A stretch of DNA of 64,000 bases from Acidobacteriaceae bacterium (lineage in GTDB: Bacteria > Acidobacteriota > Terriglobia > Terriglobales > Acidobacteriaceae). The DNA lies in the NCBI GenBank assembly GCA_003134655.1, contig PLBY01000063.1:401-64400 (forward strand), in the 5' to 3' direction. Below, in pieces: positions 555 through 61,241 of the stretch; the stretch's first letter is position 1; each line of letters begins with the position of its first letter. The notes beneath the pieces were generated by a model, which was given only the letters and a program-made list of their open reading frames with translations, did no database searches and was not told the DNA's origin. Position numbers and translations under genes: made by a program.

Positions 555-555
555 A

Positions 556-4321: not shown

Positions 4322-4605
4322 AAATACTGGAACGAATTCACGCCGCGCTGGAAGCCTCTCGAGCAAGGCCTGCAGTGGCACACGATCCAACCAGGTCGAC
4401 CGATGGAGAATGGCTATGTAGAGAGTTTCAACGGGCGGTTTCGTGACGAGTGCCTGAACAGAACTGGTTCAGCGATCTGGTCGATGCGCGGGAGAAGATC
4501 GCGCAGGGGAAGCGGGACTACAACGAACCGCGTCCGCACAGCACTTTGCAGTACCGTACCCCAGTGGAGTTCGCAGCGCAGGCTGCGGGCTTCTACAGAG
4601 CTGAA
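4322..4605 (+). mobile_element. IS3-family transposase (OrfB, integrase-core C-terminus) remnant, frameshifted and truncated
   Basis: ...[25 protein letters not shown] in one frame, then [38 protein letters not shown] in another (about 1 nt indel near 4455). This is the conserved C-terminal block of IS3 OrfB. No N-terminal part and no IRs seen. Confidence 0.75.
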
Positions 4606-4663
4606 GTGGGGCGAACAAAAACCGGAGAAAGTCTCATTATCCCTGGACTAAAGAGGGGGGCAG

Positions 4664-5170
<507 letters not shown>

Positions 5171-5375
5171 TCCACGGCCGCAAGTGGCACCTGAAGGGCT
5201 GGCCTGGTCCGGCGGTAGACTGCCCCCTGGCCCTTCGCCCATGGTGACCCTGCACCTTCGTGTTCTGCAAGGTCACGGCCTTCGGTTATCTGTCGCAGTG
5301 TCTCCCTCTCTCCTTACAGTTGCCTTACGGACTTGAACCCTTGGTCCCCCAATTTCTGTTCCCGAGGGATGTCTA

Positions 5376-24256: not shown

Positions 24257-24470
24257 TTCTTTGCCTCGGATTTTGGAGCCGCTCTCATGAATCGTTCGAT
24301 CCTGCTGGCGCAGGCGTGACTTTTTGATTTTAACAAGGGATGTGAAGGGGGTATCGTCACACTTATAGTTACCAAAGATTGCGTCTGGATCCCACTGCAA
24401 GGAGAGACAAGGGGCTCGCCGCGCCAATCCGGCATGAATCAATGGCAATTCCGGGCCGCTGCAGCTAATT

Positions 24471-25511: not shown

Positions 25512-25599
25512 TCCCAAGGATTCCAGATGGTGATCATTTGCGAATCGCTGTTGATTAGTTGCACTAAACAACCGTCGGATACGTACGCGGAAATCATGC

Positions 25600-26922: not shown

Positions 26923-27070
26923 TTTCCCGCTCCTCAATGCGCCTTATGAATGCAAGTTTCTAGTATGCCAGTTCTTCAGTAGCTTCGAAAGTGACCTAAG
27001 TTTTCGCTTCTGAACAGTCTTCTTCCACGCAGATTGGAGTATACCGGGAACTTGAGGGTAAAATCTGGAT

Positions 27071-29467: not shown

Positions 29468-29514
29468 AGCGTGTGACGGGCCGAATTTCGACGAAATAAA
29501 GGAAGCACAAGCAC

Positions 29515-41014: not shown

Positions 41015-41956
41015 CTAGGCTTTGGCCGTGGTCGGTTTCTTCTGGTAAGACTCGTAGTAGTAGCGGTCGTAGGGCAGCGCCTCCTCGCGCGTGCCGTTCA
41101 ACACCACTCCCACCAGAGTCTGATCCGGAAATTCCTGGCGAGCCTTGCGGGCTTTTTCGAACGGCGTCGAATTTGATTTCACGACCATCAACACGCCGTC
41201 GCATGCTTTCGCCAGAACGCTCGCATCCGAGAACCACACCGCCGGTGGCGAGTCAATGATGATCCAGTCAAACAACGGCTCGACGCGTTGTAACAGGAGC
41301 TTGAGGCGTCCATTGCCAACCAGTTCCGCCGGATCCGCCGCCTTGGTGCCGCTCGCGATGAAGAAAAGATTCTCCAGAGGGCCCCGCTGCATGATGGAAA
41401 ACTCGTCGTTCTTTCCCAGCAGGTAGTCGGAGAGCCCCGGATCGGATGTCGTACCCAACATTGTGTCCAGACGCGGATTTCGCAGATCGGCATCGATCAA
41501 CAGCGCTCGGCGCCCGTGCTGCCGCACCATGACTTGCGCCAGGTTTGAGGACGTGAACGACTTGCCTTCCTTGGGCTCTGCGCTGGTGATCAACAGCTTC
41601 TTCAACGGCATCTTCTCGCGCAGGTGATACAGGCGCGAACGCAGGGTGCGGAATTCTTCTGTGCCGCGCGCACCGTCGTCGCCGTTCAGGAAAAGCATTG
41701 TCGTCGGATCCGGTGGTTTCCATTCCAGCTGCGCGCAGCGGGCCAGCAAGGTATCGGTATTGAACGGGCTGGCGAAAGCCGGCATCCCCGGACGTGCCGT
41801 CGCAGGGGACGCTGTCGCCCCCTCTTCGGACGGGTTTTCCGCGAAGACCGGAGGTTCGGCCACCGGAGTCGTGGCGAAGTTGGGCTGCACCGCGCCTCCC
41901 TGGGTCGCTGCCCGCTCCTGCTCCGCTTTTTTCAACGCTTCATGAATTCGGCTCAT
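41015..41956 (-). CDS. BY-kinase-type tyrosine autokinase (CpsD/CapB-like ATPase subunit)
   Basis: Walker A ITSAEPKEGKS, A' LLIDADLRNP, B IIIDSPP. C-terminal Tyr cluster PYDRYYYESY. Confidence 0.85.
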   Translation of the reverse strand: MSRIHEALKKAEQERAATQGGAVQPNFATTPVAEPPVFAENPSEEGATASPATARPGMPAFASPFNTDTLLARCAQLEWKPPDPTTMLFLNGDDGARGTEEFRTLRSRLYHLREKMPLKKLLITSAEPKEGKSFTSSNLAQVMVRQHGRRALLIDADLRNPRLDTMLGTTSDPGLSDYLLGKNDEFSIMQRGPLENLFFIASGTKAADPAELVGNGRLKLLLQRVEPLFDWIIIDSPPAVWFSDASVLAKACDGVLMVVKSNSTPFEKARKARQEFPDQTLVGVVLNGTREEALPYDRYYYESYQKKPTTAKA

Positions 41957-42915
41957 AGTTTCCTTTCGTCGGGGAGGTCCTTTTCTTCCTGCTTCAAGCG
42001 ATCGGCCAGCGTGGCCAGCGACCGCAGTGCATCCACCAGATCAAATTTTTCGCCACTCGCATTCGGCGCAGGTGCCGGCGTAACGAGTGCACCCGAGGTC
42101 GTGTTGTCGCCCAGATCGAAATCCCGTGCGACGCCATCGACCACGCCGGGTCCAATGATTTTCTGCTGATCGACAAACGCACTCACCAGGCAGTGTTCGC
42201 AGAGCAGGTTGATCACGCGCGGAATTCCCGATGCATAGCGGTGGATCGACACGAGCGCTTCGGGTTCAAAAATCTGCTGTCCATTCGATCCCGCGATGCG
42301 CAACCTCTGCTGCACGTAGGCTTTGGTCTCGTCGAGGGTGAGTGCATGCGTCTTAGCCCGCAGCGTGAGCCGCTGCCGCAACTGCCGCAACTGCGGCTGC
42401 TTCAGCTTTTGTTCCAGTTCCGGCTGTCCCACCAGGACGATCTGGAGCAGCTTTTCCGTGAACGTCTCCAGATTGGTCAACATGCGGATCTCTTCCAGAA
42501 CTTCGTCCGAAAGGTTCTGCGCCTCGTCGACGATGAGCACGGCCGTCTCGCCCGCCCGGTAACGATCAAGCAGCCAGTTGTACAGCCGCAGCAGGATCTG
42601 GCTCTTCGCCTTCGAATCACAGGGGATGCCGAAGTCGGCCATCATGTAATCCAGAAACTGCGGTGTGTTCAGTCGCGAGTTGAAAATGAATGCCGTGGCC
42701 ACCTGCTGCAGACGCAGCCATTCCAGCAGCTTGTTGATGAGTGTGGTCTTGCCCGTCCCCACTTCCCCGGTGAGCAGCACAAAACCCTTGCGGCTCTGGA
42801 TTCCATAGGTCAGGCATGCCAGCGCCTCCTCCGTGTGCCGCGTCAAGAACAGATAACGCGGGTCCGGATTAACGTTGAACGGGTTTGCCCGTAGTCCGTA
42901 GAAATCTTTGTACAT
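41953..42915 (-). CDS. ExeA-like AAA ATPase (PEP-CTERM-system-associated ATPase type)
   Basis: MYKDFYGLRANPFNVNPDPRYLFLTRHTEEAL... and Walker A LTGEVGTGKT are typical of GspA/ExeA-like proteins. Confidence 0.85.
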   Translation of the reverse strand: MYKDFYGLRANPFNVNPDPRYLFLTRHTEEALACLTYGIQSRKGFVLLTGEVGTGKTTLINKLLEWLRLQQVATAFIFNSRLNTPQFLDYMMADFGIPCDSKAKSQILLRLYNWLLDRYRAGETAVLIVDEAQNLSDEVLEEIRMLTNLETFTEKLLQIVLVGQPELEQKLKQPQLRQLRQRLTLRAKTHALTLDETKAYVQQRLRIAGSNGQQIFEPEALVSIHRYASGIPRVINLLCEHCLVSAFVDQQKIIGPGVVDGVARDFDLGDNTTSGALVTPAPAPNASGEKFDLVDALRSLATLADRLKQEEKDLPDERKL

Positions 42916-42937
42916 AAGTGGTCCCTAAGCGTTTCGC

Positions 42938-44509
42938 TTAAACTCCAACCGTGTCTTTATGCTCGTCCGGACTCTTGTCCCGGTTCCAGAACTTCAGCTT
43001 GCTGTTTCCGTTTTCCGGGACCACGACGCCCACCCACGGAACCGCCGCCAACAAGGGCAGGTCCAGAGCTGCTTCGGCATCGGCTTCGGTGCGGATCGAT
43101 TGGTCACGCAACTCGAACCACATCGCCAGACCGATTCCCAGAGCCAGCCCGGCACCGACGCCAACACCAAGGAAGATCCAGATATTCGGGAAGCTCGGAG
43201 AGTCCGGCAGGCTCGCCGGTTGGATCTCACTCATGCGCTCGCCCTGGGCCTGATTGGTCATATTCGACGTAAGATCGGCGGTGCTTTTCTTGGAAAGCAT
43301 ATCCTGATAATTCTTGTTCGCGCTGTCGTAGTCGTTCTTGAGCCTGCTGTAGGTTTCCTCTAGTCCCGGGCTCAGGTTCAAGTGTTGCTGGTACTGCGCG
43401 ATGAGTGGTTGCAGCCTCTTCCGCTCGCGCGTAGCCTCTGCAATTGCGTCCTCATCGTGGTGAAGTTGCTGCCGCAATTGCCGTATCTCGGGCGGTTCCA
43501 TCGCCGAGGCCTTCTCGTTGCTTGCTTCCGGCGCGTCCTCCGATGCCTTGTTGATTTCCGCAAGTTTCCTTCTCACTTCGGCGATGTTGGCCTTGGCCTT
43601 CATCACATCCGGATGGTCATCCGTATAGCGCGTCTGCAGGTCGATCAATTGAGTCTGCAAGTCGGATAACTGCTTTTGCAGCGTCTGCGGATTCGTCGAG
43701 GATTGTGTCGATTTCCACGCCGCCAACTGCTGCGCGAGCGCCGCCTGGTTAAAAGACTTGTCCTGTTCCGCCAGATTCAGGTTTTGGGTGTTACGGTCAT
43801 CCTGCTGGTTCAACCCCTGCAATATTTTCAGGTTGTTGTCTTGGTCCGTGGGAAGCTGCCCAAGGTGGGCGTTCTTGAAATCCGCCAGATCGCGGCCCAC
43901 AGCGTCGAGTTTGGCCTTCGCGTCCTCCAGCCCTTGCTTCAGCACATCGACGGTTCCCTTAGCGTTCTCTTGGATGAACTTCATGTTCTTGTCGATGATC
44001 TTCGAGGTCAGCGCCTCACAAACTCGTTGGGCGTCCCTCGGGTTCGAGGCCATGTAAGACACCATGAATCCGGGTGATTGGCTCTGCCCAGGTTTCTTCC
44101 TCAACGTTGAACCTGTGATCTGAGAGAGATCGGAGAACGGAGCACCCACCAGCGCCGGTTGGTTGCGCATATCATCTAAAGTGCCATCTATTTGTTGCGG
44201 GGTTCTATTCGGAAATAGCTGCGTCAGCATCGGCCGCATTTCGCTATCACTGGTCGCCAGCGCTCTCAGCATGCCGATGCGTGTCTGCAAATCGTCCGAA
44301 ACCACCGGTTGCACCATGCTCTCCGGCACCTTCTGACTCTCAATCAGCACCAGGGACGTCGAGGTGTACTTGGCGTAGTACCGGTTCACGACCAGGTAGG
44401 CAAGAAATCCCAGCAACGTCGCACCCACCACCGGAATAAGGATCACCTTCGCTCGCCGGCGCAGCATCGCCAGATAATCGTCCATCGTCAATTCGCGATT
44501 CTGAATCAT
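42938..44509 (-). CDS. Polysaccharide chain-length determinant (Wzz/PCP, PEP-CTERM-locus type)
   Basis: From MIQNRELTMDDYLAMLRRRAKVILIPVV (N-terminal TM). Long coiled-coil periplasmic region. C-terminal TM WIFLGVGVGAGLALGIGLAMW. Confidence 0.8.
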   Translation of the reverse strand: MIQNRELTMDDYLAMLRRRAKVILIPVVGATLLGFLAYLVVNRYYAKYTSTSLVLIESQKVPESMVQPVVSDDLQTRIGMLRALATSDSEMRPMLTQLFPNRTPQQIDGTLDDMRNQPALVGAPFSDLSQITGSTLRKKPGQSQSPGFMVSYMASNPRDAQRVCEALTSKIIDKNMKFIQENAKGTVDVLKQGLEDAKAKLDAVGRDLADFKNAHLGQLPTDQDNNLKILQGLNQQDDRNTQNLNLAEQDKSFNQAALAQQLAAWKSTQSSTNPQTLQKQLSDLQTQLIDLQTRYTDDHPDVMKAKANIAEVRRKLAEINKASEDAPEASNEKASAMEPPEIRQLRQQLHHDEDAIAEATRERKRLQPLIAQYQQHLNLSPGLEETYSRLKNDYDSANKNYQDMLSKKSTADLTSNMTNQAQGERMSEIQPASLPDSPSFPNIWIFLGVGVGAGLALGIGLAMWFELRDQSIRTEADAEAALDLPLLAAVPWVGVVVPENGNSKLKFWNRDKSPDEHKDTVGV

Positions 44510-44579
44510 CCTCGTATTCCTTCTGGCGGTTTCCCTCAACCTTGCAAGGCAAGGACGAAAACTCGCCGTCCTTTGAAAA

Positions 44580-46157
44580 TCAGTCAATCCGGATCGGCCG
44601 GGGGGTCCAATCCAATCCAAAAGTCACCAATTGCCGGTTCGAAATCCGGTTGCACAGAGTATTGGGCAAGCAGTACGACTGGTCGAACGCCAACTCGTTA
44701 AACTGGTAGCTGACAAATGCGTGGAAGTCCCGCCCAAACGCGCGGTGCAACCCACCCCCGATGAAGCCATACTGATTGCTGGTGGCGTCGTTGGCAGGAC
44801 AAGCGTTTTGGGAAGTCGACGTCTGCGAACTTGTGCATTCGATCACCTGCTGCTCAGTCAGGGGCTGCAACCGGCTGTTGTACGCATACCCGATGTCGGT
44901 GAATGCGTTCCAAACTCGCGTTAGAGGTCGGGTCGCGGTCAACCGCACGATGTTATTCTGCGTCCCCGCAAACACGCCCGACCCGCTGGTTTCGTAACGT
45001 TGAAAACTCAGATCCAACGATGTTTTCGTAAACTTGTAGCGCAACCGGGCCTGCGCCGCCACTCCGAGCTTCGTGTTCTTGAGGGTCGCGGAACCTAAGG
45101 AATCTCCTACGGCAGTACAGAGAAGGAGGGGAACCGTAGGATCACTGCACACGGCACTCTGGGTATCGATGAAGGTAAACTGCGGTCCCGCCCCCAGCAG
45201 CAAGTCCATCCGCCCTGAAATCCGGTGCCCGTACATCCCTTGGATAACGTGGGTATGAAACGCCGTCCCCTCGACTGAGAAATCGAACCCCTGATACCCA
45301 TAAACCAGCGCGATCTGAGTATGCGACGTGAGTATGCGGTTGTATCCCACCTGTGCCGAGGTCTGCGAGCTGCCGATAAATGCAGAGCCCGTCGATGCGT
45401 CGTTTCCGTAAAAATGCGTGAAGGCATATCCGCCGGCCGCCGTGATGGCTGACTTGGGTGTGAGGTTCTCGGAAATATCCCCGACGCTCACGTTCATGAT
45501 GCGCGGAGTCAGACCCAGGGTTCCCATGGCGGTGCCGCTCCAGAAACTGGAGAAGGCGGTGCCGCCGAGCGATCCAATCCCCTGCGACCCCTGCGAACCG
45601 TAGGCTCCCCCGAAATTGCCTTCAGGCAGATAGCTGAAGCTGTCACGCAGTGACAATTCTCCCCGCTTCCAGGTGATCTTCTGGTCGAGATCCATTTGTT
45701 GCAGTAACTTGCCGCCCTGTCCCTGCGAGGAGTAATACCCGCCGCCGCCCATATAGTCGAGAGCCAGATCGTAGTTACTCCACAACCGTTTCAACGTCAC
45801 GCTTCCCAGCGCGCGGGTAATGGAACTGACCCCGGATCCTCCTGCGACGTTGCCCGCGTTGGTCTGCGCCGACTCGCTGAATGTCGCTCCCGGTTGCACA
45901 TAACTCAGCGGCGCCGCATGCGGCTCCAGAGAGGGCAGATCCAATCCAGACAGCGGCGGATTCTCGCTCACGGGAGGCGGCGCATTCTCCTGTCCATAGG
46001 CCGGTATCGGCTCCTGCGGATTGTTCTGCGGCGCAGGCTCCTGCTGGCCGCTCGGCGCCGGCTCAGTCGACGGCGGCGTGGAACTGTCTTGGGCCCATGC
46101 TCCACTCAGCGCAAAAACCAGCATGCCCAGGATCCAGATGCTCTGAAGTTTTCTCAT
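44580..46157 (-). CDS. Outer-membrane beta-barrel protein of the EPS export module
   Basis: Signal peptide MRKLQSIWILGMLVFALSGAWAQ. Pro/Gln-rich linker, then alternating beta-strand pattern with many aromatic-Gly motifs. No family name confidently assigned. Confidence 0.65.
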   Translation of the reverse strand: MRKLQSIWILGMLVFALSGAWAQDSSTPPSTEPAPSGQQEPAPQNNPQEPIPAYGQENAPPPVSENPPLSGLDLPSLEPHAAPLSYVQPGATFSESAQTNAGNVAGGSGVSSITRALGSVTLKRLWSNYDLALDYMGGGGYYSSQGQGGKLLQQMDLDQKITWKRGELSLRDSFSYLPEGNFGGAYGSQGSQGIGSLGGTAFSSFWSGTAMGTLGLTPRIMNVSVGDISENLTPKSAITAAGGYAFTHFYGNDASTGSAFIGSSQTSAQVGYNRILTSHTQIALVYGYQGFDFSVEGTAFHTHVIQGMYGHRISGRMDLLLGAGPQFTFIDTQSAVCSDPTVPLLLCTAVGDSLGSATLKNTKLGVAAQARLRYKFTKTSLDLSFQRYETSGSGVFAGTQNNIVRLTATRPLTRVWNAFTDIGYAYNSRLQPLTEQQVIECTSSQTSTSQNACPANDATSNQYGFIGGGLHRAFGRDFHAFVSYQFNELAFDQSYCLPNTLCNRISNRQLVTFGLDWTPRPIRID

Positions 46158-46165
46158 CGCTTTCC

Positions 46166-46795
46166 TTACGGAACCACCACCGTGTCGCCCGGTTTCAGTT
46201 GGATGTTCTGTTCGGGGTGATTTCCTTTGATCACTTCCTTGTAGTTGAACGGCAATTTCTCCTGTTTGCCGTTCTCCGTGCGCAGCAGGTAAATCCCTTT
46301 GACATTGGCAAATTGCGTGAAACCCGCCTGCGACAGCGCTTGCAACATCGTCATGTGCGGCAGCAAAGCCATCGGCCCGGTGTGTACAACTTCTCCGGTC
46401 ACAAAAATGCGCCGGCTGTTCATCGCCATCACCACCACGGTCACCCGCGGATCCGCGATGAATTTCTTCAGTTTTTCGGTAATCGAATCCTTCAGCTGCA
46501 ACGGAGTCAGGCCCGCCGCTGGAATATCGTTCAGCAGCGGCATTGAGATCTTTCCGTCCGGGCGTACTGGCAGGGTTTCCGAAAGATCCGGTTCCTTCCA
46601 GACCGTAATGCGCAGCTGGTCGTCGGCTCCAATCGAATAATCGGAATCAGAAGATGCCTCTGACCCCTGCACAGTTGCTGCCGGCTTCGCATTCTTGTCT
46701 GCCTCGGTCTTCTCTGCACCGCTGGTCTGCGCCAGCAGTCCCGCTGCCAGTAAACCCATCCCCATCAACACTGCCAGTTTCATCGCTTTCGTCAT
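46166..46795 (-). CDS. Polysaccharide export protein (Wza-like; Poly_export + SLBB)
   Basis: YSIGADDQLRITVWKEPDLSETLPVRPDGKISMPLLNDIPAAGLTPLQLKDSI and C-terminal LKPGDTVVVP. Confidence 0.85.
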   Translation of the reverse strand: MTKAMKLAVLMGMGLLAAGLLAQTSGAEKTEADKNAKPAATVQGSEASSDSDYSIGADDQLRITVWKEPDLSETLPVRPDGKISMPLLNDIPAAGLTPLQLKDSITEKLKKFIADPRVTVVVMAMNSRRIFVTGEVVHTGPMALLPHMTMLQALSQAGFTQFANVKGIYLLRTENGKQEKLPFNYKEVIKGNHPEQNIQLKPGDTVVVP

Positions 46796-47793
46796 ACGGT
46801 CTCCGCGGAGTTAGGACGCTCCGTTCCTTCAAATCCAATTTGCTTCAACTTGTAGAGCAAAGCCTTGTAGCTGATCTGCAGTTCCTCCGCGGCCCGCCGC
46901 CGGTTCCAGCGGGTGCGCGTCAATGTGTTCAGGATCAGCTCCCTTTCCGCCTCGCGCGAGGCCGCCCGCGACGCTGCCTTCAGAGAAATTCCTCCTCCGT
47001 TGACGCCCGCCTCGGGCTTGCGCAACAAAGCGCGCAGACCGCCCAGGGCCACCTGCTCATCTCCCAGCGCCACCAGCACCCGGGCCGCGTCTTCCAGTTC
47101 CCGCAAGTTCCCTGGCCACGAATAATCGAGAAACAGGCGCAGGGTCTCGGCGCTCAGGTCAGGAACCGTACGACAGAAATCCCGCGCATACTTGCGCAGA
47201 AAGTGCCCCATCAAAAACGCAATGTCTTCTTTCCTCTGGCGCAATGGAGGCAGCCGCAGACACACACCGCTGATGCGGTAATAGAGATCCTCGCGCAACC
47301 GCCCCCGCTTGACTTCCACTTCCAGATCACGGGCGCTTCCACAAATCAGCCGGGTGCGATGGCTTGCGGCCACGCGTTTCCCATGCGATTGCGGTAACGC
47401 CTCCAGCAGGCGGGTCTGGCACTCCTGACTCAAGTCGGCCAACTCTTGCAGATAGATCGTTCCGGTGCTTGGCTGCGCGCCGTCGTCTTCTTGTTCCCGC
47501 AGAATCTCCAGGTCTTCTGGCTCGAGTCCTAGACACTGAAACCAACGGAAGGGCTGCGCGCTGCGTTGCGACATTTGATGGATGCGCTGCGCCGTGGCGT
47601 GCTTGCCCGCTCCCGGCTCAGCGAGCACGAGGACGGGAACATCGCTCTGCGCCAGTTCCCGGATCACTGCTTCCACCGGCCGCATGCTCGCGCTCACACC
47701 TTCCACGAACGCAAGTCCGGCCGGCTCGGCCGCCGAGCCTTCTCCGCTTTTCGCACGAGTTGGCAAGAAGTTGCCCATTTTTACCTTTTCCAC
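46792..47793 (-). CDS. EBP-like (sigma54-activator-fold AAA+ plus Fis-type HTH) regulator with degenerate ATPase and no GAFTGA loop
   Basis: Colinear with NtrC-type central domains (LREDLYYRISGVCLRLPPLRQRKEDI, WPGNLRELE, HTH RWNRRRAAEELQISYKALLYKLK). Walker A is AEPGAGKH, Walker B is IYLQEL, and GAFTGA is absent. Possible alternative start ATG 47778. Confidence 0.8.
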   Translation of the reverse strand: MEKVKMGNFLPTRAKSGEGSAAEPAGLAFVEGVSASMRPVEAVIRELAQSDVPVLVLAEPGAGKHATAQRIHQMSQRSAQPFRWFQCLGLEPEDLEILREQEDDGAQPSTGTIYLQELADLSQECQTRLLEALPQSHGKRVAASHRTRLICGSARDLEVEVKRGRLREDLYYRISGVCLRLPPLRQRKEDIAFLMGHFLRKYARDFCRTVPDLSAETLRLFLDYSWPGNLRELEDAARVLVALGDEQVALGGLRALLRKPEAGVNGGGISLKAASRAASREAERELILNTLTRTRWNRRRAAEELQISYKALLYKLKQIGFEGTERPNSAETV

Positions 47794-47841
47794 TTTATGC
47801 AGGGGACGGCCGATGCCCCCACGATTCGCTGTAGTTCTCAG

Positions 47842-47857
47842 AGCACGAGGATTGCCA
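47842..47857 (-). promoter_or_regulatory. Candidate sigma54 (-24/-12) promoter for the EPS operon
   Basis: Minus strand reads TGGCAATCCTCGTGCT (GG-N10-GC spacing correct), about 35-50 nt upstream of the regulator start. Confidence 0.4.
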
Positions 47858-48250
47858 CTGCGGTGAGTTCTGCCGACAAAGACAGAGATTCTATTGCACC
47901 TATTGTTTTCAATAACTTAGGACAAAAAGACTGAACCGGCGGGGGATGTTCCAGGATCTGGTCAGAATTCCGTTGCCCTGTGACTAGGGGATTTGTGGGA
48001 AAAACTTTTCTCACTTTGGGTGGCTCACTCTGCCACAGCTGCCACCCACTTTTTCACAAGTCGAGCGCCTTGAATTGAATTCTGCGGGGGCAACCTAAGG
48101 CCCATCCATCAAGCATAGTGGCCCGTACCGACCTCCGAAAGTTACCCCAGTAAGCCACCTCGGTACCGGAGTTTGCATTGCGCACCCGCGCTGTTTCGCT
48201 TATTCTCGAAGTTCCCCACCGCACAAATTCCGGTTCCCGTGGTCCAATAG

Positions 48251-49849
48251 GTGCAAACCGAGCAAGTGCATACCGAGCCCGAGCAAAGCGAGTCGTCAAC
48301 CGCCCGCCCGGCGTCAGCTGTCCTCAGAGCCGTTCCACTCTGGCAAGTGGGCATCCTGGCGGCGCTTTTGGTCTGGCTTTATTGGCCGACTCTCGTACGC
48401 CTGGTCCATCAGTGGCGGACCGATGACAATACCTCACACGGGTTCATCGTCCCTTTGTTCTCCGCCTTCGTGATCTGGCAGCAGCGCGATCGCCTCGCTC
48501 GGATCCTCACTCGGCCATCCTGGTCCGGCCTGGCCGCTCTGGTGGCCGGCCTGGGAGTTCTCATCTTAGGCCGCATGGGCGCGGAACTCTTCCTCGAGCG
48601 CTCTTCGGTGCTGCTGGTTCTGGCCGGGCTGGTAATCCTTCTTATCGGATGGAATTTTTTCCGCGCTGTGTTGTTCCCCTGGGCATTCCTGCTGATGATG
48701 ATCCCCATTCCCACCATCGTTCTGAATCAGATCACCTTCCCGCTACAACTGCTCGCCTCGCAGGTCGCTGCCACAGTGCTCCCCGTGTTCGGAGTTCCGG
48801 TCCTGCGCGAGGGCAACGTAATCAATCTGGCTGCCATGCCTCTCGAAGTGGCCGAGGCCTGCAGCGGCATTCGCTCTCTCATGTCTCTGGTGGCGCTCGC
48901 GATCATCTACGGATATCTGCTGGAAAAGCGCCTCTGGGTGCGCTGGTTGCTCGCTCTCGCCGCCGTGCCCATCACGGTTTTCGCCAACGATGTCCGCATT
49001 GTCGGCACCGGATTGCTCGTCCAGTATTGGGGTCCCGAGGCAGCCGAGGGCTATTTCCACGCTTCCTGGGGATTGATCACCTTCGCCATTTCTCTGCTCA
49101 TGTTCTACGGTCTGCACTCACTCATCCGCTTCTTTTTCCCCGAGAAGGGCGATGAGTCGCTCACAGCGGGCACTCCGGCAAGAATGACGGTGTTCCCGGT
49201 TGTGAAGAGCTCCACCACAAGTTTCGTCCTGGCCACTCTGCTGATCGCCAGCGCGGCCGTGCTCCTTCACGCACGCGCAGGCAGCGAAGTCTTTCCGCCA
49301 CGTCTTGAGCTGAAGGAGTTCCCCACGCAATTAGGCGACTGGACCGATGAGGATCGGGCAATCGAACAGGGGTCCCTCGATGTACTCAAGCCGAGTGATT
49401 ATCTTCTGCGGGTCTACTGGAACCCGGAAAAAACTCGGTACATCGATCTGTTCATCCCTTTTTACCGCAGCCAGCGTGTCGGAGAGTCCCCCCACTCGCC
49501 ACAGCACTGCCTCCCCGGATCAGGCTGGAGCCCGCTGGAAAACGAGCGCATCACTCTCACCATCCCAGGTCACGAACCGTTTCCCGTTAACCGCTATCTG
49601 ATTGCGAAAGGCGACTCCCGGCAACTCGTTCTTTACTGGTTCTGGGCGCATAATCGCGGAGTCGCCAGCGAGTACTGGGTCAAATACTACTTGGTGAAAG
49701 ATTCCATCAAGATGAACCGCAGCGACGGTTCCCTGGTACGCGTTACGACCCCGCTCTATCCCGGCGAGACAGCCGATGCCGCGCAGCAGCGCCTTCTTCC
49801 GTTCGTAGAGAAAGTTGTGCCTCTGCTGGACAGTTACGTTCCGCGCTAA
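48251..49849 (+). CDS. Exosortase (EpsH/Xrt family) fused to a C-terminal EpsI-family domain
   Basis: WRTDDNTSHGFIVP, MMIPIP, EVAEACSGIRSL (catalytic Cys context), FANDVRIVGTG, then an extra TM and an EpsI-like periplasmic domain (FPTQLGDW..., SPHSPQHCLPGSGW, LVLYWFW). Confidence 0.9.
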   Translation: MQTEQVHTEPEQSESSTARPASAVLRAVPLWQVGILAALLVWLYWPTLVRLVHQWRTDDNTSHGFIVPLFSAFVIWQQRDRLARILTRPSWSGLAALVAGLGVLILGRMGAELFLERSSVLLVLAGLVILLIGWNFFRAVLFPWAFLLMMIPIPTIVLNQITFPLQLLASQVAATVLPVFGVPVLREGNVINLAAMPLEVAEACSGIRSLMSLVALAIIYGYLLEKRLWVRWLLALAAVPITVFANDVRIVGTGLLVQYWGPEAAEGYFHASWGLITFAISLLMFYGLHSLIRFFFPEKGDESLTAGTPARMTVFPVVKSSTTSFVLATLLIASAAVLLHARAGSEVFPPRLELKEFPTQLGDWTDEDRAIEQGSLDVLKPSDYLLRVYWNPEKTRYIDLFIPFYRSQRVGESPHSPQHCLPGSGWSPLENERITLTIPGHEPFPVNRYLIAKGDSRQLVLYWFWAHNRGVASEYWVKYYLVKDSIKMNRSDGSLVRVTTPLYPGETADAAQQRLLPFVEKVVPLLDSYVPR

Positions 49850-49981
49850 CGAGATTCCTTCAATCGCGATCAAAGTATGACTCCAGTAACTGTTTTCCTC
49901 GGTTACCTTGCAGTATCATGAGGCGTTGTGCGGAGGAATGCCCTCGTGTGCCTTCCGCATCCGCAGTTGGAGAATCCCAAT

Positions 49982-52297
49982 ATGAGTCGCTCCGTGTCCG
50001 TCCGTTTGCTTCTGGCCTGCTCCCTTCTGCTTGTTGCGTTTACCGGCTGCTCCCGTGACCCCAACGTGCGCAAGCAGAAATATTTCGAAAGCGGCGAAAA
50101 ATATTTTGCGGAGGGCAAGTACCGCGAGGCGGAAATCCAGTATCGCAATGCCATCCAGGTTGATTCCCGCTTCGCCCAGGCCCACTACCAACTCAGCCAG
50201 GCCTACCTCAAGCTGGGCGACAGCAACCGCGCCTTCCAGGAATTGAACCGTGCCGTTGAACTTGCTCCCGATAACTATCGTGCCCATACTGATCTCGCGA
50301 ACCTTCTCGTCACGGTAAGAAATCCCGACGGCAGTACGGTTCCGGACACTCTCAAGCAGGCAAAGGTCCACCTCGATATCCTCCGCGACAAGCAGCCCAA
50401 CAGCCCCGAAACCCACGAGGCCTGGGCCAACTATTACGGGGCGCAAAGCAATATTGCCGCTGCCATGCAAGAGATGCAGCAGGCCATCGCCGCCGACCCC
50501 AACCGCTCCGAGTCCTATCTGTTGCTTGCCCTGTTCCAACTCCGCTCCAACCTGCCCGACCAGGCCGAGTCCAATTTCAAGAAGGCAGCCGAAACCGATC
50601 CTAAAGCCATCAACGCTCAATTGGCTCTGGGCGGCTTCTACCAGTCGCGGAACCGCTTGCCTGAAGCCGAAGCGCAGTATAAACACGCCATCGGAGTTGC
50701 CCCGAAAAACCCGGCGCCGCGCGCTGCCCTGGTCCGGTTGCTGATGCAAGAAGGCAAGAAGGACGAGACTGAATCCTTCCTGCGGCAAACCAAGAAGGAT
50801 CTTTCCGATAATCCCGAAGGCTATCGCATGCTCGGCGACTTCTACGCGACTTTCGATATCGACAAAGCCACTGCCGAATACAGTTCGCTTTATAACGAGC
50901 ACCCAAAAGATATTCAGGTCAAGAAGAACTACATCCAACTCCTGATCCTGAAGAACCGCCTCGACGAAGCCACCAAACTCGACAACGAGATCCTGAAGGC
51001 CAACGCCCACGACGTGGAAGGCCTCGTGTTCAGGGCCCAGGTCCAGCTTCGCCAGAATGACGCCAACGGCGCCGTGGACTCGCTGCAGAGCGCGCTCCGC
51101 AACGATCCTGACAACGCAGTCGCCCACTACCAGTTGGGAAATGCTTTCGCCCTGCAGCACAATGACAGCCGCGCAGAATCGGAGTGGCGTGAGGCAGTCA
51201 GACTCCGTCCGGACCTGACCGATGCGCTGCGCTCCCTGGCGGCCCTGGAATTGCGCCGGGGCGATATCGATGCCCTGCTCCAGACCGCGCAGCAGATCAT
51301 CACCGCCCAGCCGTATTCACCGGACGGCTTTATCTTCAAAGGCATTGCGGATCTCGCCCGCCTGAAATACAACGACGCTCAGCAGGACGCCGAACACGCC
51401 ATGCAGCGGGCACCCCAGATTCCTGCTCCCTACGTCCAGATGGGCACCATTCAGCTTGCGCAGAAGCATTACCCTGAGGCGGAGAAGTTCTACCAGCAGG
51501 CGCTCGATAAGGATCCTTCTTCCGCCGAGGGCCTCAGCGGCCTGATGAACACTTATTTCGCGCAGAAGGAATACGACAAGGCGATCGTAGCGGCCAACAC
51601 TCAAATCGCCAAGTCTCCCAACAACGCCAATTTCTACGACCTGCTCGGCACCGCGCTCTTCAACGGCAAGAAAGATCTGCCCGGCGCCGAAGCCGCCCTG
51701 CACAAAGCCATCGAGCTCGACAAGAACAACTCCGATGCCATCGAAAAACTCGGCAAAGTGCAAGTGCAGGAGGGCGCCGCTGACAAGGCTCTCGCTCTCT
51801 ACCAGCAATCCATTAAAGACAATCCGCGGGAAGTCACCTTTTATATTCTTTCCGGTGAATTGTATGAAGCGAAAAAGGACTGGGATCACGCCAAAGGCAT
51901 GTACCAGCAGGCGCTCAGCATTTCCCCCGATCATCCTCTCGCTTCCAACAATCTCGCCTACGTGATTCTCGAGCAGGGCGGCAACGTAGATGTCGCGATG
52001 GGCCTGGCGCAGACGGCGCGCCGCGGCATGCCCGACTCGCCCAACGCCGCCGATACGCTTGGCTGGGCCTACTATCAGAAGGGCGTCTACCAGTCCGCGA
52101 TCGGTCAGTTTCAGGCAGCCTTGCGGCTGGCCGAAAAGCGTGGCGATCCCGACGACGCCGACTTCCACTACCACCTCGGCGTCGCGTATCAGAAAGCCAA
52201 CCAGGACGCGCAGGCCCGCCAGCAATTGGAGAAGGCTGTAAGGCTAAGTCCCAACCACACCGACGCCAAGAAAGCCTTGTCGGAACTCCACGGCTAG
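49982..52297 (+). CDS. prsT: PEP-CTERM-system TPR-repeat lipoprotein (PrsT-like)
   Basis: Lipoprotein signal LLLACSLLLVAFTGC from ATG 49982. About 770 aa of consecutive TPR units (YRNAIQVDSRFAQAHYQLSQAYLKLGD...). Adjacent to the exosortase. Confidence 0.8.
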   Translation: MSRSVSVRLLLACSLLLVAFTGCSRDPNVRKQKYFESGEKYFAEGKYREAEIQYRNAIQVDSRFAQAHYQLSQAYLKLGDSNRAFQELNRAVELAPDNYRAHTDLANLLVTVRNPDGSTVPDTLKQAKVHLDILRDKQPNSPETHEAWANYYGAQSNIAAAMQEMQQAIAADPNRSESYLLLALFQLRSNLPDQAESNFKKAAETDPKAINAQLALGGFYQSRNRLPEAEAQYKHAIGVAPKNPAPRAALVRLLMQEGKKDETESFLRQTKKDLSDNPEGYRMLGDFYATFDIDKATAEYSSLYNEHPKDIQVKKNYIQLLILKNRLDEATKLDNEILKANAHDVEGLVFRAQVQLRQNDANGAVDSLQSALRNDPDNAVAHYQLGNAFALQHNDSRAESEWREAVRLRPDLTDALRSLAALELRRGDIDALLQTAQQIITAQPYSPDGFIFKGIADLARLKYNDAQQDAEHAMQRAPQIPAPYVQMGTIQLAQKHYPEAEKFYQQALDKDPSSAEGLSGLMNTYFAQKEYDKAIVAANTQIAKSPNNANFYDLLGTALFNGKKDLPGAEAALHKAIELDKNNSDAIEKLGKVQVQEGAADKALALYQQSIKDNPREVTFYILSGELYEAKKDWDHAKGMYQQALSISPDHPLASNNLAYVILEQGGNVDVAMGLAQTARRGMPDSPNAADTLGWAYYQKGVYQSAIGQFQAALRLAEKRGDPDDADFHYHLGVAYQKANQDAQARQQLEKAVRLSPNHTDAKKALSELHG

Positions 52298-52383: not shown

Positions 52384-52992
52384 TTAGCCCTTCAGCTTGC
52401 GACGAACCAGTCCAGCCAGACCGATCAACCCAGTTCCCAACAGGCTCAACGAGCCCGGTTCCGGAACTACGATGTTCGTGTCACCGCTCGAAATGGTCGT
52501 GCTGCCGTTGAAGTAGCCTCTGCCGGTGTTGATCGTCAACTGCACGGTCACACCTACGGTCGCCGCTCCGGAGCCGGTCCAGCCCGTTAGGGCGCCGGTC
52601 AGAGTGTAGTTATGCGTTCCGTTGGCCAGAGTCACCAGCGTCCAGGTCACAGGACCGTCAAACGTTCCCGTAAACAGGGTTCCGTTCGGAACTCCGCTGG
52701 TGCCGTTTCCAGTGATGGTGAACCATCCACCACCCGCGAATGTGCCGCCCATTTGCAACGAACCGCTCGTGAGGGCACCGGTTGAGAAGCCGACGCTGCC
52801 CAGGTTGTTCCCTGTGATCAGCCCGCCTCCATTGAGCCCATTAACGGCAATCAAGACGGATCCGCTCAGCGAAAGTCCCGCGCTCGAACCCGACAAGGTA
52901 CCGCCACTATTGGTGTAGTCTACGCTGCTGCCGGCAAACATCGCCGTTGGCAGGGCCAGTGCCAGTACAGCAAGCAAGAGGATTTTCTTCAT
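52384..52992 (-). CDS. PEP-CTERM sorting-domain protein (Gly/Ser/Thr-rich secreted protein)
   Basis: Signal peptide MKKILLLAVLALALPTAMFA. Canonical C-terminus VPEPGSLSLLGTGLIGLAGLVRRKLKG (PEP motif, TM, basic cluster). AGGAG RBS. Confidence 0.9.
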   Translation of the reverse strand: MKKILLLAVLALALPTAMFAGSSVDYTNSGGTLSGSSAGLSLSGSVLIAVNGLNGGGLITGNNLGSVGFSTGALTSGSLQMGGTFAGGGWFTITGNGTSGVPNGTLFTGTFDGPVTWTLVTLANGTHNYTLTGALTGWTGSGAATVGVTVQLTINTGRGYFNGSTTISSGDTNIVVPEPGSLSLLGTGLIGLAGLVRRKLKG

Positions 52993-57725: not shown

Positions 57726-60700
57726 CTACGGGACCGACAGCGTGATGGAACTGCTCTTGCTGTCGCTACCCGACGTCCCCGTGACGGTGATCGTGTAGAT
57801 TCCCGGAGGCGTTCCGCTGACCGGCGCTTGCGTCGACGTCCCACCGCAAGCCGGCTGCAGCAGAAGCAGCGCAAACAGAGCGCACAACATGAAAATTCCC
57901 AGGATACGCCGGCGGCGCCTGTCGCCTCCGACTCCCACACCCAGCAGCGTCAATCCCGGAACCGCCAGCCAGAGCCCATAAAGGCTCCGCAGACTCGCCG
58001 CGGGCGTGACCACTGGCCTCGCCGTCGTCACCAAGTTGAGCGTGGAAGACCCTGGACCCCCTACCAGCTTGACCGATTGGGTCGTGAAGTTGCAGCTAGA
58101 CGCAGTGGGTAAGCCGCTACACGCCAGCGAGATGCTGCTGGAGTAAGCGGTATGCGGTGACAACTGCACTTCGTAGACAGCCGTATCACCAGCCCGCGCC
58201 ACACTGCCGTTCGGAGGACTGACGGAGATGCTGAAATCGGACGTCTGCGCGGCGACCGAGGTCTGCGCCAGAACCACATTGCCCGGCCCTATCGCCTGCA
58301 CCGACCCGCCGTTGAAGGAAGAAGGGCTCCCGCTGCTATTCGCCGCAGGCGTTGCCGTTATGACGACCGTTGCGGTCGAGCCAGCCTGCAGGGGTGGAAG
58401 GGTACAACTCACGTTGGTATTGGTCGAGCCTCCCCCGCAAGTCCCTGAACTGACGCTCGCACTAATATTACTAAGCGGCACACCCGTGACCGACGGGCTC
58501 ACGTTGTCCAGAACTGTGATGCTGCTGGCCACGTCTGGGCCGTTGTTCGTCACCGTATAAGTGAACGTTGCCGGATTCCCCGCATCCACGAAAGACTGGT
58601 TCGTCCCCGATGACAGCACTCCCGTGATCGACAAACTCAACGCTGGTCCCAGTTGGGTCACAAAGGCGTCGTACCCCCCAGGGTTGCTGTTGTTGGTCGC
58701 CTGCAATGGCTTATTGACCTGCAAGTCGACCGAATTCGTGTCTCCAGCGAAGTAGGCGTTCTGGTTGACGTCGAGCGTGACCCCGGTCCCTTCCGTGAAC
58801 ACCGTATTCGAGTCAGCGCTGCTGCCCCCGAAGTAATTAACCCAGGAGCCCGCCGTCGTCTGCCCCAGCACCGCGGTGGTGTTCAGTCGGGCTGTAAACG
58901 CATCCTGGAAGCCGGTCAGAGAACTCGTACCGACGGGAAAAACAGGGAAATCAGATGATTGGGTCCATCCCGTGATCACGGCCCCCGCGGCGGAGTCCAC
59001 TGTGATCGCCAGGCCGGCTTCGTCGTTGGCCCCTCCCAGATAGGAGAAGTAGTTCAGCGCCACGTTCACCGCAGTACCCGTGGTCGTGGTCGGGTTGGTC
59101 AGCCGTGCCACGAAGGCATCGTTGGGGGGAGTCGTAGTGAATGTGGGGCACGGCGTGCCCGCTGGCGGATTGATTGCTGTGTCCAGGCAGATTTGATATG
59201 GAGCGGCCGTATTCAGAGTCGTTACAATGGCAAATGGGGAGGAGTTCGTGGTTCCGACAACGTAGACGTTGGCCGCTCCAGTATCAACGGCGACGCCCGC
59301 GCCAGAGTCCGTCCCGCCGCCTCCCAGGTAAGTCGACCATACCAGCTGTTGTCCCTGCGCTGCAGTGGGATTCAAATTGAGCTTTGCCACGAAGGCGTCC
59401 GGCTCCGTCGTAGTCGTATCGGTCGTGCACGACGGAGGATTGGTGATCTGGGTCGGAGGGGGCACACCCAGACACGGCTGGTACGCGTTCAGGATGGGAA
59501 AGTCGCTGCCGCCGCAACCCGCGCATCCCGAGAACAAGTAGTTCGTCGTGCCCGTGAAATAGACGTTGCCGCTCGTGTCGACGGCAATGCCGCCGCCTAC
59601 AGCGACCGCGGTCGGAGTGTTAAAGCTGGCCCCGCCAAAAAAGGTCGAGTACGCGATACTCGCCTGCCTCGGTGCGCTCGTATTGACCTTGGTCACGAAA
59701 AACTGGGGCTGACCCGGGGAGCGCGAAATGCTCTGGAATGGCACTCCCTGTGGCAGATTGCTGGCTGGGAACTGGATCAGACCGCTGGAGGCATCAGTTG
59801 ATGTCGTGGTGCCGGTCACATAAATGTAGCCCGACGCGTCGAGCGTCATCCCGCTGGCGATGTCGGTGCCGTTGCCCGAAAGGTACGAGGAATACTTCAA
59901 CGCCGTGGCGTCGTTCTGCAGCCAGGTCACGAAGGCGTGAGTGCCCGCGACCTCGGGCGCATTTTGATAGGCACTCAGCGTCGTCGGGAAATTAGCCGAG
60001 GTCGTCGTGCCCGCAACGTAGGCTTCGCCGCCGCCGTTGACGCTGATGCCAACCGGGTAGTCGCTGCCGGAGCCACCCAGATACGTCACATAGTCAAGAG
60101 CAGCCACAATCGATCCCAAGGGCGGAGTGATCTTGGCGACATAAACGTTCTGTGTAGCTCCAGCGCCCAGCGCTGGCTGAAAAATCCCAGCAACCGTCGG
60201 GAGATTCGGAGACGTTGTCGAACCTGTGATGTAGATATTGAAACTTCCATCCACCGCCACCGAAGTCGCCTTCTCGTCGCCGCTGCCGCCAAAGTAGGTG
60301 GAGAACGTCAGAATGGGGTCGATGATCAATTCGCGCGAGTGATCGTAAGAGCCGATCGCGAATCCCGCGCGGTTCGCCCCACGCAGAACAAAACGGCCTT
60401 CAACCGGTTGCTGGCGGCCCGCGATCTCCTGGTACACTCGCGGAGCATCGAGCCGCACGCTCCCGCCCCCGCTCTGGATTACCAAGGCGCCGTCCTTCAA
60501 CTCCAACTGCTTCGCGCCATTGAATTCCAGTTCGGCCTGCTTCGGATCCGACCCAGGCGCCACCTGGAAATCGTATTCCAGATGTCCCTGATTCCCGTAG
60601 AAAACCAGATTGATTCCGGGATAAACGTCTTCATACCGCACCCGCGCAAACTGCGGAACACCACGGTGCCACTTCGCCGGATCATTGCCCAGAAAATAGT

Positions 60701-61241
60701 TGCTCTTGCCCGGCAGCAAGTCCGCGCCAGAAACGTGGGCATTCGGATTCGCGCCCGCCAGCTTCATCTGCAGCGAGTCCACACGGGTCAGCGACGCATC
60801 CTGCTTCGACTTGGACTGCTCGCGAGACACGAGGCTCAGAATCGCTCCCTCGGAGCCCAAGAACAGACTGTATCCGGAGCCGCGGGTCACGAACTTCGCG
60901 CGCTGGTCGGCCGGGTCCAAGTTCCCCTGTCCCTGGTTCGGCTCAAAGATGAGCGGCAGTCCTGCGAAGAGCGAGCGCGCCCGCGACTGCGCGTCTCCGC
61001 TGGCTCCCGCGGAACCAGCCTGCGACGGCGCCAAAAGGCCCGGTACAGCCGTTGCCGGCGCTTCGATCGCTGGAAGGTGGGCCGCGGCGTTCGCGGCGGT
61101 TTGGCGTGAGCGGGAACCCCACCCGAGGACTGCGCATCCTGCCCCTAGCAGCACCAGCCCAGCGGCCAGAACACGAACTCGTACCACGGATGTTCCCAAC
61201 CAACGGCGCTCTACGTTCACTCGTTCCTCCGATGCAGTCAA
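57726..61241 (-). CDS. Large surface protein: N-terminal anchor, seven SBBP-type beta-propeller repeats, DUF11-like/Ig-like domains and the composite C-terminal module
   Basis: Repeats of the form (S/T)YLGGSG.D...gi.vD..GN.YV.G.T.S..FP, seven times. TYTVTNNGPDVASSITVLDNV (DUF11-like). Tail LYGLWLAVPGLTLLGVGVGGDRRRRRILGIFMLCALFALLLLQPACGG...GTPPGIYTITVTG. Confidence 0.85.
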   Translation of the reverse strand: MTASEERVNVERRWLGTSVVRVRVLAAGLVLLGAGCAVLGWGSRSRQTAANAAAHLPAIEAPATAVPGLLAPSQAGSAGASGDAQSRARSLFAGLPLIFEPNQGQGNLDPADQRAKFVTRGSGYSLFLGSEGAILSLVSREQSKSKQDASLTRVDSLQMKLAGANPNAHVSGADLLPGKSNYFLGNDPAKWHRGVPQFARVRYEDVYPGINLVFYGNQGHLEYDFQVAPGSDPKQAELEFNGAKQLELKDGALVIQSGGGSVRLDAPRVYQEIAGRQQPVEGRFVLRGANRAGFAIGSYDHSRELIIDPILTFSTYFGGSGDEKATSVAVDGSFNIYITGSTTSPNLPTVAGIFQPALGAGATQNVYVAKITPPLGSIVAALDYVTYLGGSGSDYPVGISVNGGGEAYVAGTTTSANFPTTLSAYQNAPEVAGTHAFVTWLQNDATALKYSSYLSGNGTDIASGMTLDASGYIYVTGTTTSTDASSGLIQFPASNLPQGVPFQSISRSPGQPQFFVTKVNTSAPRQASIAYSTFFGGASFNTPTAVAVGGGIAVDTSGNVYFTGTTNYLFSGCAGCGGSDFPILNAYQPCLGVPPPTQITNPPSCTTDTTTTEPDAFVAKLNLNPTAAQGQQLVWSTYLGGGGTDSGAGVAVDTGAANVYVVGTTNSSPFAIVTTLNTAAPYQICLDTAINPPAGTPCPTFTTTPPNDAFVARLTNPTTTTGTAVNVALNYFSYLGGANDEAGLAITVDSAAGAVITGWTQSSDFPVFPVGTSSLTGFQDAFTARLNTTAVLGQTTAGSWVNYFGGSSADSNTVFTEGTGVTLDVNQNAYFAGDTNSVDLQVNKPLQATNNSNPGGYDAFVTQLGPALSLSITGVLSSGTNQSFVDAGNPATFTYTVTNNGPDVASSITVLDNVSPSVTGVPLSNISASVSSGTCGGGSTNTNVSCTLPPLQAGSTATVVITATPAANSSGSPSSFNGGSVQAIGPGNVVLAQTSVAAQTSDFSISVSPPNGSVARAGDTAVYEVQLSPHTAYSSSISLACSGLPTASSCNFTTQSVKLVGGPGSSTLNLVTTARPVVTPAASLRSLYGLWLAVPGLTLLGVGVGGDRRRRRILGIFMLCALFALLLLQPACGGTSTQAPVSGTPPGIYTITVTGTSGSDSKSSSITLSVP

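Follow-up and report, generated by a model that had tools for sequence, protein, structure and literature searches.

Two lipo-invert tails of an acidobacterial locus and the split immunoglobulin-like domain that contains their putative membrane anchor

Why do two exported proteins that differ over the rest of their length finish in the same tail, and how might such a tail hold a protein at the cell envelope? The question is raised by a stretch of 64,000 nucleotides from an Acidobacteriaceae genome (assembly GCA_003134655.1, contig PLBY01000063.1, positions 401 to 64,400), which is called the window below. An open reading frame (ORF) on the minus strand (57726..61241) is translated into an exported protein of 1171 residues with SBBP beta-propeller repeats (the SBBP protein), whose end, ...SLYGLWLAVPGLTLLGVGVGGDRRRRRILGIFMLCALFALLLLQPACGGTSTQAPVSGTPPGIYTITVTGTSGSDSKSSSITLSVP, is copy 1 of the tail. 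An ORF on the plus strand enters at the window start and stops at 554, and its translation ends in ...ALYAVWLPIPGLALIGLGLGSGPSRRKKWLGCLALWMVLASLIVLPACGAAGNAGGGGNSGTPAGTYTITITGKDKNNLTQSNTAPAVSVTVN, which is copy 2. A first-pass annotation, made from the letters of the sequence, described the last 86 codons of the copy 1 gene (57729..57986; SLYGLWLAVPGLTLLGVGVGGDRRRRRILGIFMLCALFALLLLQPACGG...GTPPGIYTITVTG...LSVP) as a module of three parts: a PEP-CTERM-like segment, a segment similar to a lipoprotein signal peptide and a short beta-rich end. The results presented here identify both tails as members of a curated protein family and place their membrane-directed part within the last immunoglobulin (Ig)-like repeat of the protein.

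Homology of the two tails and their family

The tails of copy 1 and copy 2 have 33 identical residues out of 78 (42%; BLASTP, E value 2e-9), and their sequences are as the first-pass annotation had quoted them, which bears out its claim that the SBBP protein and the partial protein at 1..554 share a C-terminal tail. Both tails match NF058595.1 ('invert_tail', NCBIfam release 20.0), a hidden Markov model (HMM) of 113 positions with a curated whole-protein cutoff of 37 bits. The copy 1 protein scores 87.8 bits (E 5.9e-25; residues 1065-1170, profile positions 2-112 of 113), the copy 2 protein 77.5 bits (E 9.4e-22; positions 2-107 of 113), and a tail excised as 100 residues 89.7 bits. Because both copies match one curated HMM with E values of 6e-25 and 9e-22, their similarity represents homology and not chance. 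The window tails lie at 2.1-2.4 times the cutoff, cover nearly the whole model and share with the family the order of elements, the C-terminal position and the lineage; nothing sets them outside it. Both are members of NF058595, a family that has already been catalogued, and the finding of the tail is a rediscovery.

The curated name of the family, 'lipo-invert putative C-terminal anchoring domain', expresses the same idea as the first-pass annotation, which had seen in the second part a lipoprotein-type signal at the wrong end of the protein and had considered a membrane hairpin anchor. The view that the arrangement had no named domain does not hold, as the tail scores as an already described C-terminal domain. 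What is known about NF058595 consists of the curated model and the name, which contains the word 'putative', and not of a tested mechanism. No paper on the lipo-invert module or on NF058595 was found in the literature, no Pfam model matches the tail, and public records label the family members by their passenger domains or as 'hypothetical protein'. In one protein (P0105), residues 340-419 match NF058597, the 'choice-of-anchor Z repeating domain', whose accession is adjacent to NF058595. This adjacency suggests that lipo-invert was treated by the same curation effort as one of several interchangeable anchors.

The family extends far beyond the window. An HMM of 18 tails, searched against 1.84e9 (1.84 billion) cluster representatives, gave 9324 matches at E<=1e-3, of which 1158 clusters pass E<=1e-10, and a merely local duplication is thereby rejected. 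Most of the best matches span profile positions 1-103 and form the extreme C-terminus of proteins that have 90 to 1340 residues. Word-based searches found 46 and 43 close relatives of the two tails, all of them metagenome fragments. Within the window, a six-frame scan with the family HMM finds exactly two copies. A genome scan with flanks of 6 kb gave 80 loci, for the most part with orthologs of the SBBP gene and nearly all from Terriglobia (Acidobacteriaceae, Ca. Sulfotelmatobacter, Terriglobales and Acidoferrum). Outside Acidobacteriota, module loci were met in one bin labelled Candidatus Eisenbacteria and one labelled Verrucomicrobiia (L017 and L080), which could be due to mis-binning or to horizontal transfer.

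The passengers that carry the tail are diverse (SBBP/DUF7948, FG-GAP, IPT/TIG, Big_1, Big_3_5 and pro-kumamolisin protease) and have N-terminal signal peptides or anchors. The module itself is found at the opposite end. It finishes 0-4 residues before the stop codon in 93/93 modules (84 related loci and the window) and within 6 residues of the stop in 84 of 88 diverse representatives, and both window copies end at the stop.

A membrane cassette inside the last Ig-like repeat

The membrane-directed part of the tail is a cassette of fixed order: a Gly/Pro-rich transmembrane helix (TM1), 4-5 Arg/Lys residues, and a very hydrophobic helix (TM2) that ends in [LQM][PA][AGS]C and is followed by a Gly/Ser-rich tether. 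This cassette is inserted into the last Ig-like repeat of about 100 residues, after the third-last strand, so that the final two strands are separated from the rest. The insertion was shown by means of a spliced HMM of 107 positions. To build it, an alignment covering the last ~170 residues was stripped of all columns between the end of 'TTARP' and the start of 'SGTP'. This HMM is matched by 107 contiguous internal repeats, over its positions 2-106 and with a best independent E value of 6.6e-18. Two relatives, P0093 and P0153, have ordinary Ig-like repeats of ~100 residues directly upstream of the tail. The intact and the spliced domain of P0093 align with an E value of 4e-11 (BLASTP, without composition correction). 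In P0153, an intact repeat (residues 300-399) is followed by a split one, in which model positions 3-75 are found at residues 404-482 and positions 78-106 at residues 552-580, with a cassette of 69 residues between them. The insert between the two Ig parts has 52-78 residues (median 62), and the first Ig part is placed directly before TM1 in 85 of the 88 diverse representatives that have room upstream.

These results change the extent of the module. The order of elements given by the first-pass annotation stands, namely a conserved TM segment with Pro and Gly, a basic cluster after it, a helix of signal-peptide type that ends in xAC-G, and beta strands; the boundary had been drawn too tightly. 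The shared unit begins near 58241 in copy 1, about 75-85 residues upstream of 57986; in copy 2 its start is at base 3 or earlier. The third part, which had been taken for a free-standing mini Ig-strand motif, represents the last two strands of a complete ~100-residue Ig-like repeat begun before the first part. In giant Ig-repeat proteins, matches are confined to the segment of the profile after the Cys and number up to 41 in one protein; the third part is thus a recurring piece of a common repeat. This acidobacterial repeat has no Pfam name and shows weak similarity to He_PIG and Y_Y_Y. The NF058595 model begins at the third-last strand, so that the upstream Ig part interrupted by the cassette lies outside it. 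What is new with respect to the NF058595 annotation is that the membrane hairpin and the lipoprotein-like Cys box sit inside the last Ig-like domain. For annotators, it is relevant that the functional unit has about 170 residues, not about 100.

The protein encoded by the copy 1 gene (57726..61241, minus strand, as are all features of this copy) starts with an N-terminal TM/signal anchor and continues with DUF7948 (219 bits), six SBBP beta-propeller repeats (107 bits) and DUF11 (39.5 bits), before it reaches the split Ig-like domain with the lipo-invert cassette. The N-terminal part of this domain (58020..58241, residues 1001-1074) comprises strands A-E with a conserved Cys pair, C1041/C1050. 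It matches positions 2-83 of the spliced HMM and is homologous to the first ~75 positions of the intact internal repeats. Strand E is connected by the linker RPVVTPAASLRS (57984..58019) to TM1, LYGLWLAVPGLTLLGVGVGG (57924..57983), a Kyte-Doolittle hydropathy peak that bears the motif Y-A-x-W-L-x-x-P-G-L...G-x-G-x-G of a conserved stop-transfer helix. The basic loop DRRRRR (57906..57923) coincides with conserved Arg/Lys columns and is predicted to be cytoplasmic by the positive-inside rule. The signal-peptide-like helix TM2, ILGIFMLCALFALLLLQPA (57849..57905), is the strongest hydrophobic peak (Kyte-Doolittle values up to 3.0) and ends in the box Q-P-A immediately before the cysteine at residue 1132 (57846..57848). 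This cysteine is invariant in three family alignments and is a candidate site of diacylglyceryl modification and cleavage. The Gly/Ser/Thr tether GGTSTQAPVS (57816..57845) then leads to the F-G hairpin GTPPGIYTITVTGTSGSDSKSSSITLSVP (57729..57815), which contains the last two Ig strands.

Copy 2 is built in the same manner on the plus strand. The N-terminal part of its Ig-like domain occupies 3..233 and aligns with that of copy 1, and the gene extends upstream of the window. The linker and TM1 (LYAVWLPIPGLALIGLGLGSG) together with the basic loop PSRRKK follow at 234..356, and TM2, WLGCLALWMVLASLIVLPA, with the invariant Cys (414..416) at 357..416. Both helices coincide with Kyte-Doolittle peaks, that of TM2 reaching 2.5. 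The remaining segment (417..554) contains the Gly-rich tether (GAAGNAGGGGNS), the F-G hairpin GTPAGTYTITITG...AVSVTVN and the stop codon.

Both copies were modelled with AlphaFold2 using the family alignment, and the confidence of the models is given as the predicted local distance difference test score (pLDDT). In the numbering of the model, copy 1 has strands at residues 3-72 (pLDDT ~89), a linker of low pLDDT (57-71), helices at 85-102 (TM1) and 108-127 (TM2), a tether of low pLDDT, and the last strands at 147-157 and 160-170 (pLDDT 85-94). In copy 2, strands at 4-76 (pLDDT ~90) are followed by helices at 89-108 and 115-134, by a tether with pLDDT <50 and by the last strands at 155-165 and 177-182 (pLDDT ~90). 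Foldseek aligns the models over the whole query with generic single Ig/Fn3-like sandwiches, e.g. 2r39 (109 residues, TMt 0.73, 175 alignment columns). Such spans would be expected if the last hairpin completes the upstream sandwich and the two helices are looped out. The evidence from sequence for the split Ig domain is stronger than that from structure.

Column conservation was computed on 92 distinct modules. The TM1 motif F-Y-A-x-W-L-x-x-P-G-L-x-L-x-G-x-G-x-G retains its Y in 81/92, W in 72/92, L in 77/92 and G in 80/92 modules. Between the helices there are four consecutive Arg/Lys columns, each kept in 74-85 of the 92. The Cys is present in all 92, and the residue at -1 to it is Ala, Gly or Ser in 91. 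Position -2 is occupied by Pro in 63 modules, including both window copies, and by Ala in 17; position -3 by Leu in 35 (including copy 2), by Gln in 33 (including copy 1) and by Met in 12. The columns after the Cys (63-74) are rich in Gly, Ser and Thr and variable in length. In the terminal motif G-T-P-x-G-x-Y-T-x-T, each of G, T, P, G, Y, T and T is found in 87-92 of the 92. The NF058595 cutoff is passed by nine of the ten diverse relatives tested. The exception, P0083 (20.2 bits), is a relative of copy 2 in which a fibronectin type III (FN3) domain is placed between the Cys/Gly tether and the last two strands (…LPACGGGSNSGGGGGC-[FN3]-TPSGTYTITITG…). Hence, the tether after the Cys tolerates a whole folded extracytoplasmic domain.

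Possible anchoring mechanism and its alternatives

Lipoprotein signal peptides have 16-26 residues, a lipobox with the consensus [LV][ASTVI][GAS]C and a disordered tether after the Cys (PMC8689077). With these signals, which are processed by Lgt, LspA and Lnt, the module shares a basic n-region, an h-region, a small residue at -1, an invariant Cys, a length of ~25 residues and a disordered Gly/Ser tether. The n-region and h-region of copy 1 up to and including the Cys comprise 25 residues counted from the first Arg (residues 1108-1132 of 1171). Lipoprotein signal peptides are N-terminal, whereas the box of the module is internal, ~40-55 residues from the C-terminus, and comes after a stop-transfer helix. 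Judged by this sequence context, the Cys may be regarded with moderate confidence as an Lgt site.

The resemblance of the first part to PEP-CTERM signals, which the first-pass annotation had pointed out, holds for the layout only. The common features are a short Pro-containing motif, a Gly-rich TM helix and an Arg/Lys cluster, and an exosortase locus is present in the same window. PEP-CTERM signals have P-E-P before the helix, whereas the module has W-L-x-x-P-G inside it. Their basic cluster is near the stop, whereas 59-65 residues (TM2, Cys, tether and two strands) follow it in the window copies. TIGR02595 and PF07589 do not match either tail even at E<=1, yet they match the canonical PEP-CTERM substrate at 52384..52992 (23.7 bits against a cutoff of 16, and 26.2 bits against 20.7, respectively). 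This substrate is real, as had been proposed, and is encoded on the minus strand. VPLPA-CTERM and other HMMs of C-terminal sorting signals do not match the tails at E<=1 either, except for CoaP_CTERM at 12.8 bits, well under its cutoff of 35. The HMM results argue against naming the tail a PEP-CTERM variant. Other tripartite C-terminal signals, such as MYXO-CTERM, GlyGly-CTERM (rhombosortase) and PGF-CTERM (archaeosortase), are likewise found on diverse exported passengers, following a 'choice-of-anchor' principle, and some of them finish with a lipid attached near the C-terminus. These signals have a single TM helix, are terminal and are each served by a dedicated sorting enzyme. None of them is known to have another helix that resembles a signal peptide or to interrupt a folded domain.

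In each copy, an Arg/Lys cluster lies between two hydrophobic peaks, and the attachment of the passenger to the membrane can be pictured as follows. The passenger would be exported via its N-terminal signal. TM1 would then stop the transfer, with the Arg cluster staying in the cytoplasm according to the positive-inside rule, and TM2 would re-export the chain in the manner of a signal peptide. The two Ig parts would meet and fold together on the outer side of the cytoplasmic membrane, to which the protein would be pinned by its C-terminal end. We infer this out-in-out hairpin topology with good confidence, and the FN3 domain that is inserted after the Cys in P0083 fits an extracytoplasmic post-Cys segment. 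Lgt would attach a diacylglyceryl group to the invariant Cys at the end of TM2 that faces outward. LspA may subsequently cut before the Cys, a step that is less certain than the topology. Such cleavage would leave a lipidated two-strand peptide of ~40 residues in the Ig fold by strand complementation, where it would serve as a C-terminal lipid anchor. A two-chain terminal Ig sandwich generated by LspA, with the passenger held by the lipidated peptide, is speculative, and so is the idea that the conserved TM1 is recognised by a second enzyme, which would take out the hairpin. Chaperone-usher pilins (Caf1, Saf, AggA) also have an Ig-like fold completed by the strand of a separate chain, and such pilin/chaperone structures are among the Foldseek matches. 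The likeness is an analogy only: the parts of the module are made as one chain, and a two-chain sandwich would result only if LspA cuts.

On balance, an NF058595 split-Ig hairpin anchor with out-in-out topology, a lipidated Cys and possibly an LspA cut appears probable, with considerable reservations. Several points weigh against it. The box departs from the lipobox consensus by Pro at -2 (63/92) and Gln at -3 (33/92), and candidates for N-terminal lipoproteins in the same lineages have LAAC, LAGC or FTGC (a regular-expression survey of seven cases, too few to judge Pro at -2). The lipid looks redundant beside a hairpin anchor unless cleavage follows, and after LspA cleavage TM1 and TM2 would still tie the passenger to the inner membrane. 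The packing of the last hairpin against the upstream Ig part is judged indirectly, from pLDDT values and the spans of the Foldseek alignments, and the Foldseek matches are weak (best E values of 8.6e-4 for copy 1 and 6e-3 for copy 2) and include no informative specific homolog. The unusual box and the canonical boxes of the seven candidates would equally suit a plain helical-hairpin anchor with neither lipid nor cleavage, for which two TM helices suffice. The Cys would then be needed for a disulfide, a metal, a thioether contact or helix capping, and its likeness to a lipobox would be superficial. Such an anchor is hard to reconcile with a Cys that stands in all 92 modules exactly at the outer end of a signal-peptide-like helix, after a small residue in 91 of them and before a Gly/Ser tether typical of lipoproteins, while TM2 is otherwise poorly conserved and no conserved partner Cys comes after it. 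We consider the plain hairpin doubtful, while giving it some weight. If the lipidated hairpin anchor is correct, the split last Ig repeat provides a concrete model of how a lipoprotein-type signal might anchor the C-terminal end of a protein, and the module, present on more than 1000 protein clusters of soil Terriglobia, would keep passengers of adhesin-like, propeller, FG-GAP and protease type at the envelope.

The cassette might also be a removable insert. After the action of Lgt and LspA, the lipopeptide would remain clamped in the Ig domain, and a second enzyme (an exosortase, a rhomboid, or an S2P- or CPBP-type protease) would free or re-ligate the passenger. The geometry of the split Ig domain makes this physically plausible; we nevertheless think it unlikely. 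If true, a large protein would be lipid-anchored at its C-terminus via a non-covalent or spliced lipopeptide and could be carried by Lol to the outer membrane, a new C-terminal lipid-anchoring route in diderm bacteria. A related proposal makes the module a distinct class of substrates of an exosortase or another sorting enzyme, which would cut at TM1 and the basic cluster and remove the hairpin, the passenger being kept by or ligated to the lipidated peptide. TM1 is indeed conserved far beyond the need of a generic anchor, including its G-x-G-x-G, and the succession of motif, TM helix and basic cluster agrees with the general PEP-CTERM layout. The gene for an exosortase with a fused EpsI domain is situated 8 kb from copy 1, and orthologs of the SBBP gene are often found near homologs of PrsT (26 loci) and of the 202-residue PEP-CTERM protein (15 loci). 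This conserved neighbourhood, however, belongs to one SBBP ortholog group and not to the module family; no exosortase homolog was found by phmmer within ±6 kb in the 84 related loci, a flank too short to decide the matter; and the module family hardly extends beyond Terriglobia, in contrast to exosortases, which are widespread. None of the HMMs of C-terminal sorting signals reaches its cutoff on the tails, the P-G is placed within the helix and not before it, and the signal is not terminal; a substrate class of this kind is quite improbable. The chance that the tails resemble each other by accident, by low-complexity composition or by a local duplication of a 3' end is negligible. Both are rich in Gly, Ser, Thr, Leu and Ala and occur in one 64-kb window, but such an origin is refuted by the HMM E values of ~1e-22 to 1e-25, by the 1158 clusters on varied passengers and by the ordered motifs of the 92 modules.

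Neighbouring genes and minor observations

At the other end of the SBBP protein, its N-terminus (61100..61241 on the minus strand of the window), the orthologs have in common the conserved motif EERVNVDRRW and, after it, a single TM helix between basic residues (VLAAGLVLLGAGCAVLGWGSRSR). A Cys in this helix is not conserved among the orthologs. The SBBP protein may therefore be tethered to the membrane at both ends. Copy 1 adjoins genes for a sigma-54 response regulator and a kinase, and this pairing is kept in 44-51 related loci, mostly those of SBBP gene orthologs.

The window contains a large exosortase-associated exopolysaccharide locus (23393..33899 and 41953..52297). Its genes encode PrsT, the XrtA-system ATPase, chain-length and export proteins, an asparagine synthase and glycosyltransferases including a double GT4. 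The exosortase mentioned above is of the XrtD type and is encoded at 48251..49849 on the plus strand (TIGR04152, 442 bits against a cutoff of 400; TIGR02914 EpsI, 134 bits); it is regarded only as part of the genomic context of the module. A sulfotransferase (23393..24637) and a heparinase II/III-like protein (27071..29467) suggest that the product of the locus is a sulfated polysaccharide.

Downstream of copy 2, the gene at 556..1608, which encodes a signal-peptide protein with weak similarity to DUF3466, starts 2 nt past the stop of the copy 2 gene (window 554..556). This spacing suggests an operon with translational coupling. Between the copy 2 gene cluster and the exopolysaccharide genes, a truncated TauE/SafE-like ORF (3710..4261), which matches only the C-terminal half of the profile, is followed by a fragment of an integrase core (rve_3, 4450..4953). 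Both are possible remnants of mobile elements.

The tail was also considered as a small gene of its own, which would have favoured a two-chain state, as 'proteins' of 95-175 residues starting with MSDF... or MTF... are found among the relatives. This was rejected. The 'proteins' of 171-175 residues are artefacts of gene calling, because their contigs begin 25-40 nt upstream (L003 1..40, L004 1..26). The nanopore contigs contain frameshifts, and the ORF extends further upstream (L001). The 106-residue tail ORF P0076, present on at least 24 contigs from several samples, is likewise no gene in its own right and represents the tail of a frameshifted gene of 608 residues on L085.

Short-read metagenome contigs with orthologs of copy 1 repeatedly start 25-40 nt 5' of the conserved Met-Ser-Asp-Phe that opens the last Ig-like repeat, and metagenome assemblies seem to break at this repeat boundary. 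The family member on L085 (3512..5338 and 4887..5321; also on L086-L088) has a frameshift within the N-terminal part of its last Ig repeat and could represent a pseudogene or a case of a fixed frameshift. A gene for Lnt (apolipoprotein N-acyltransferase) lies about 4 kb upstream of this member, which is probably a coincidence.

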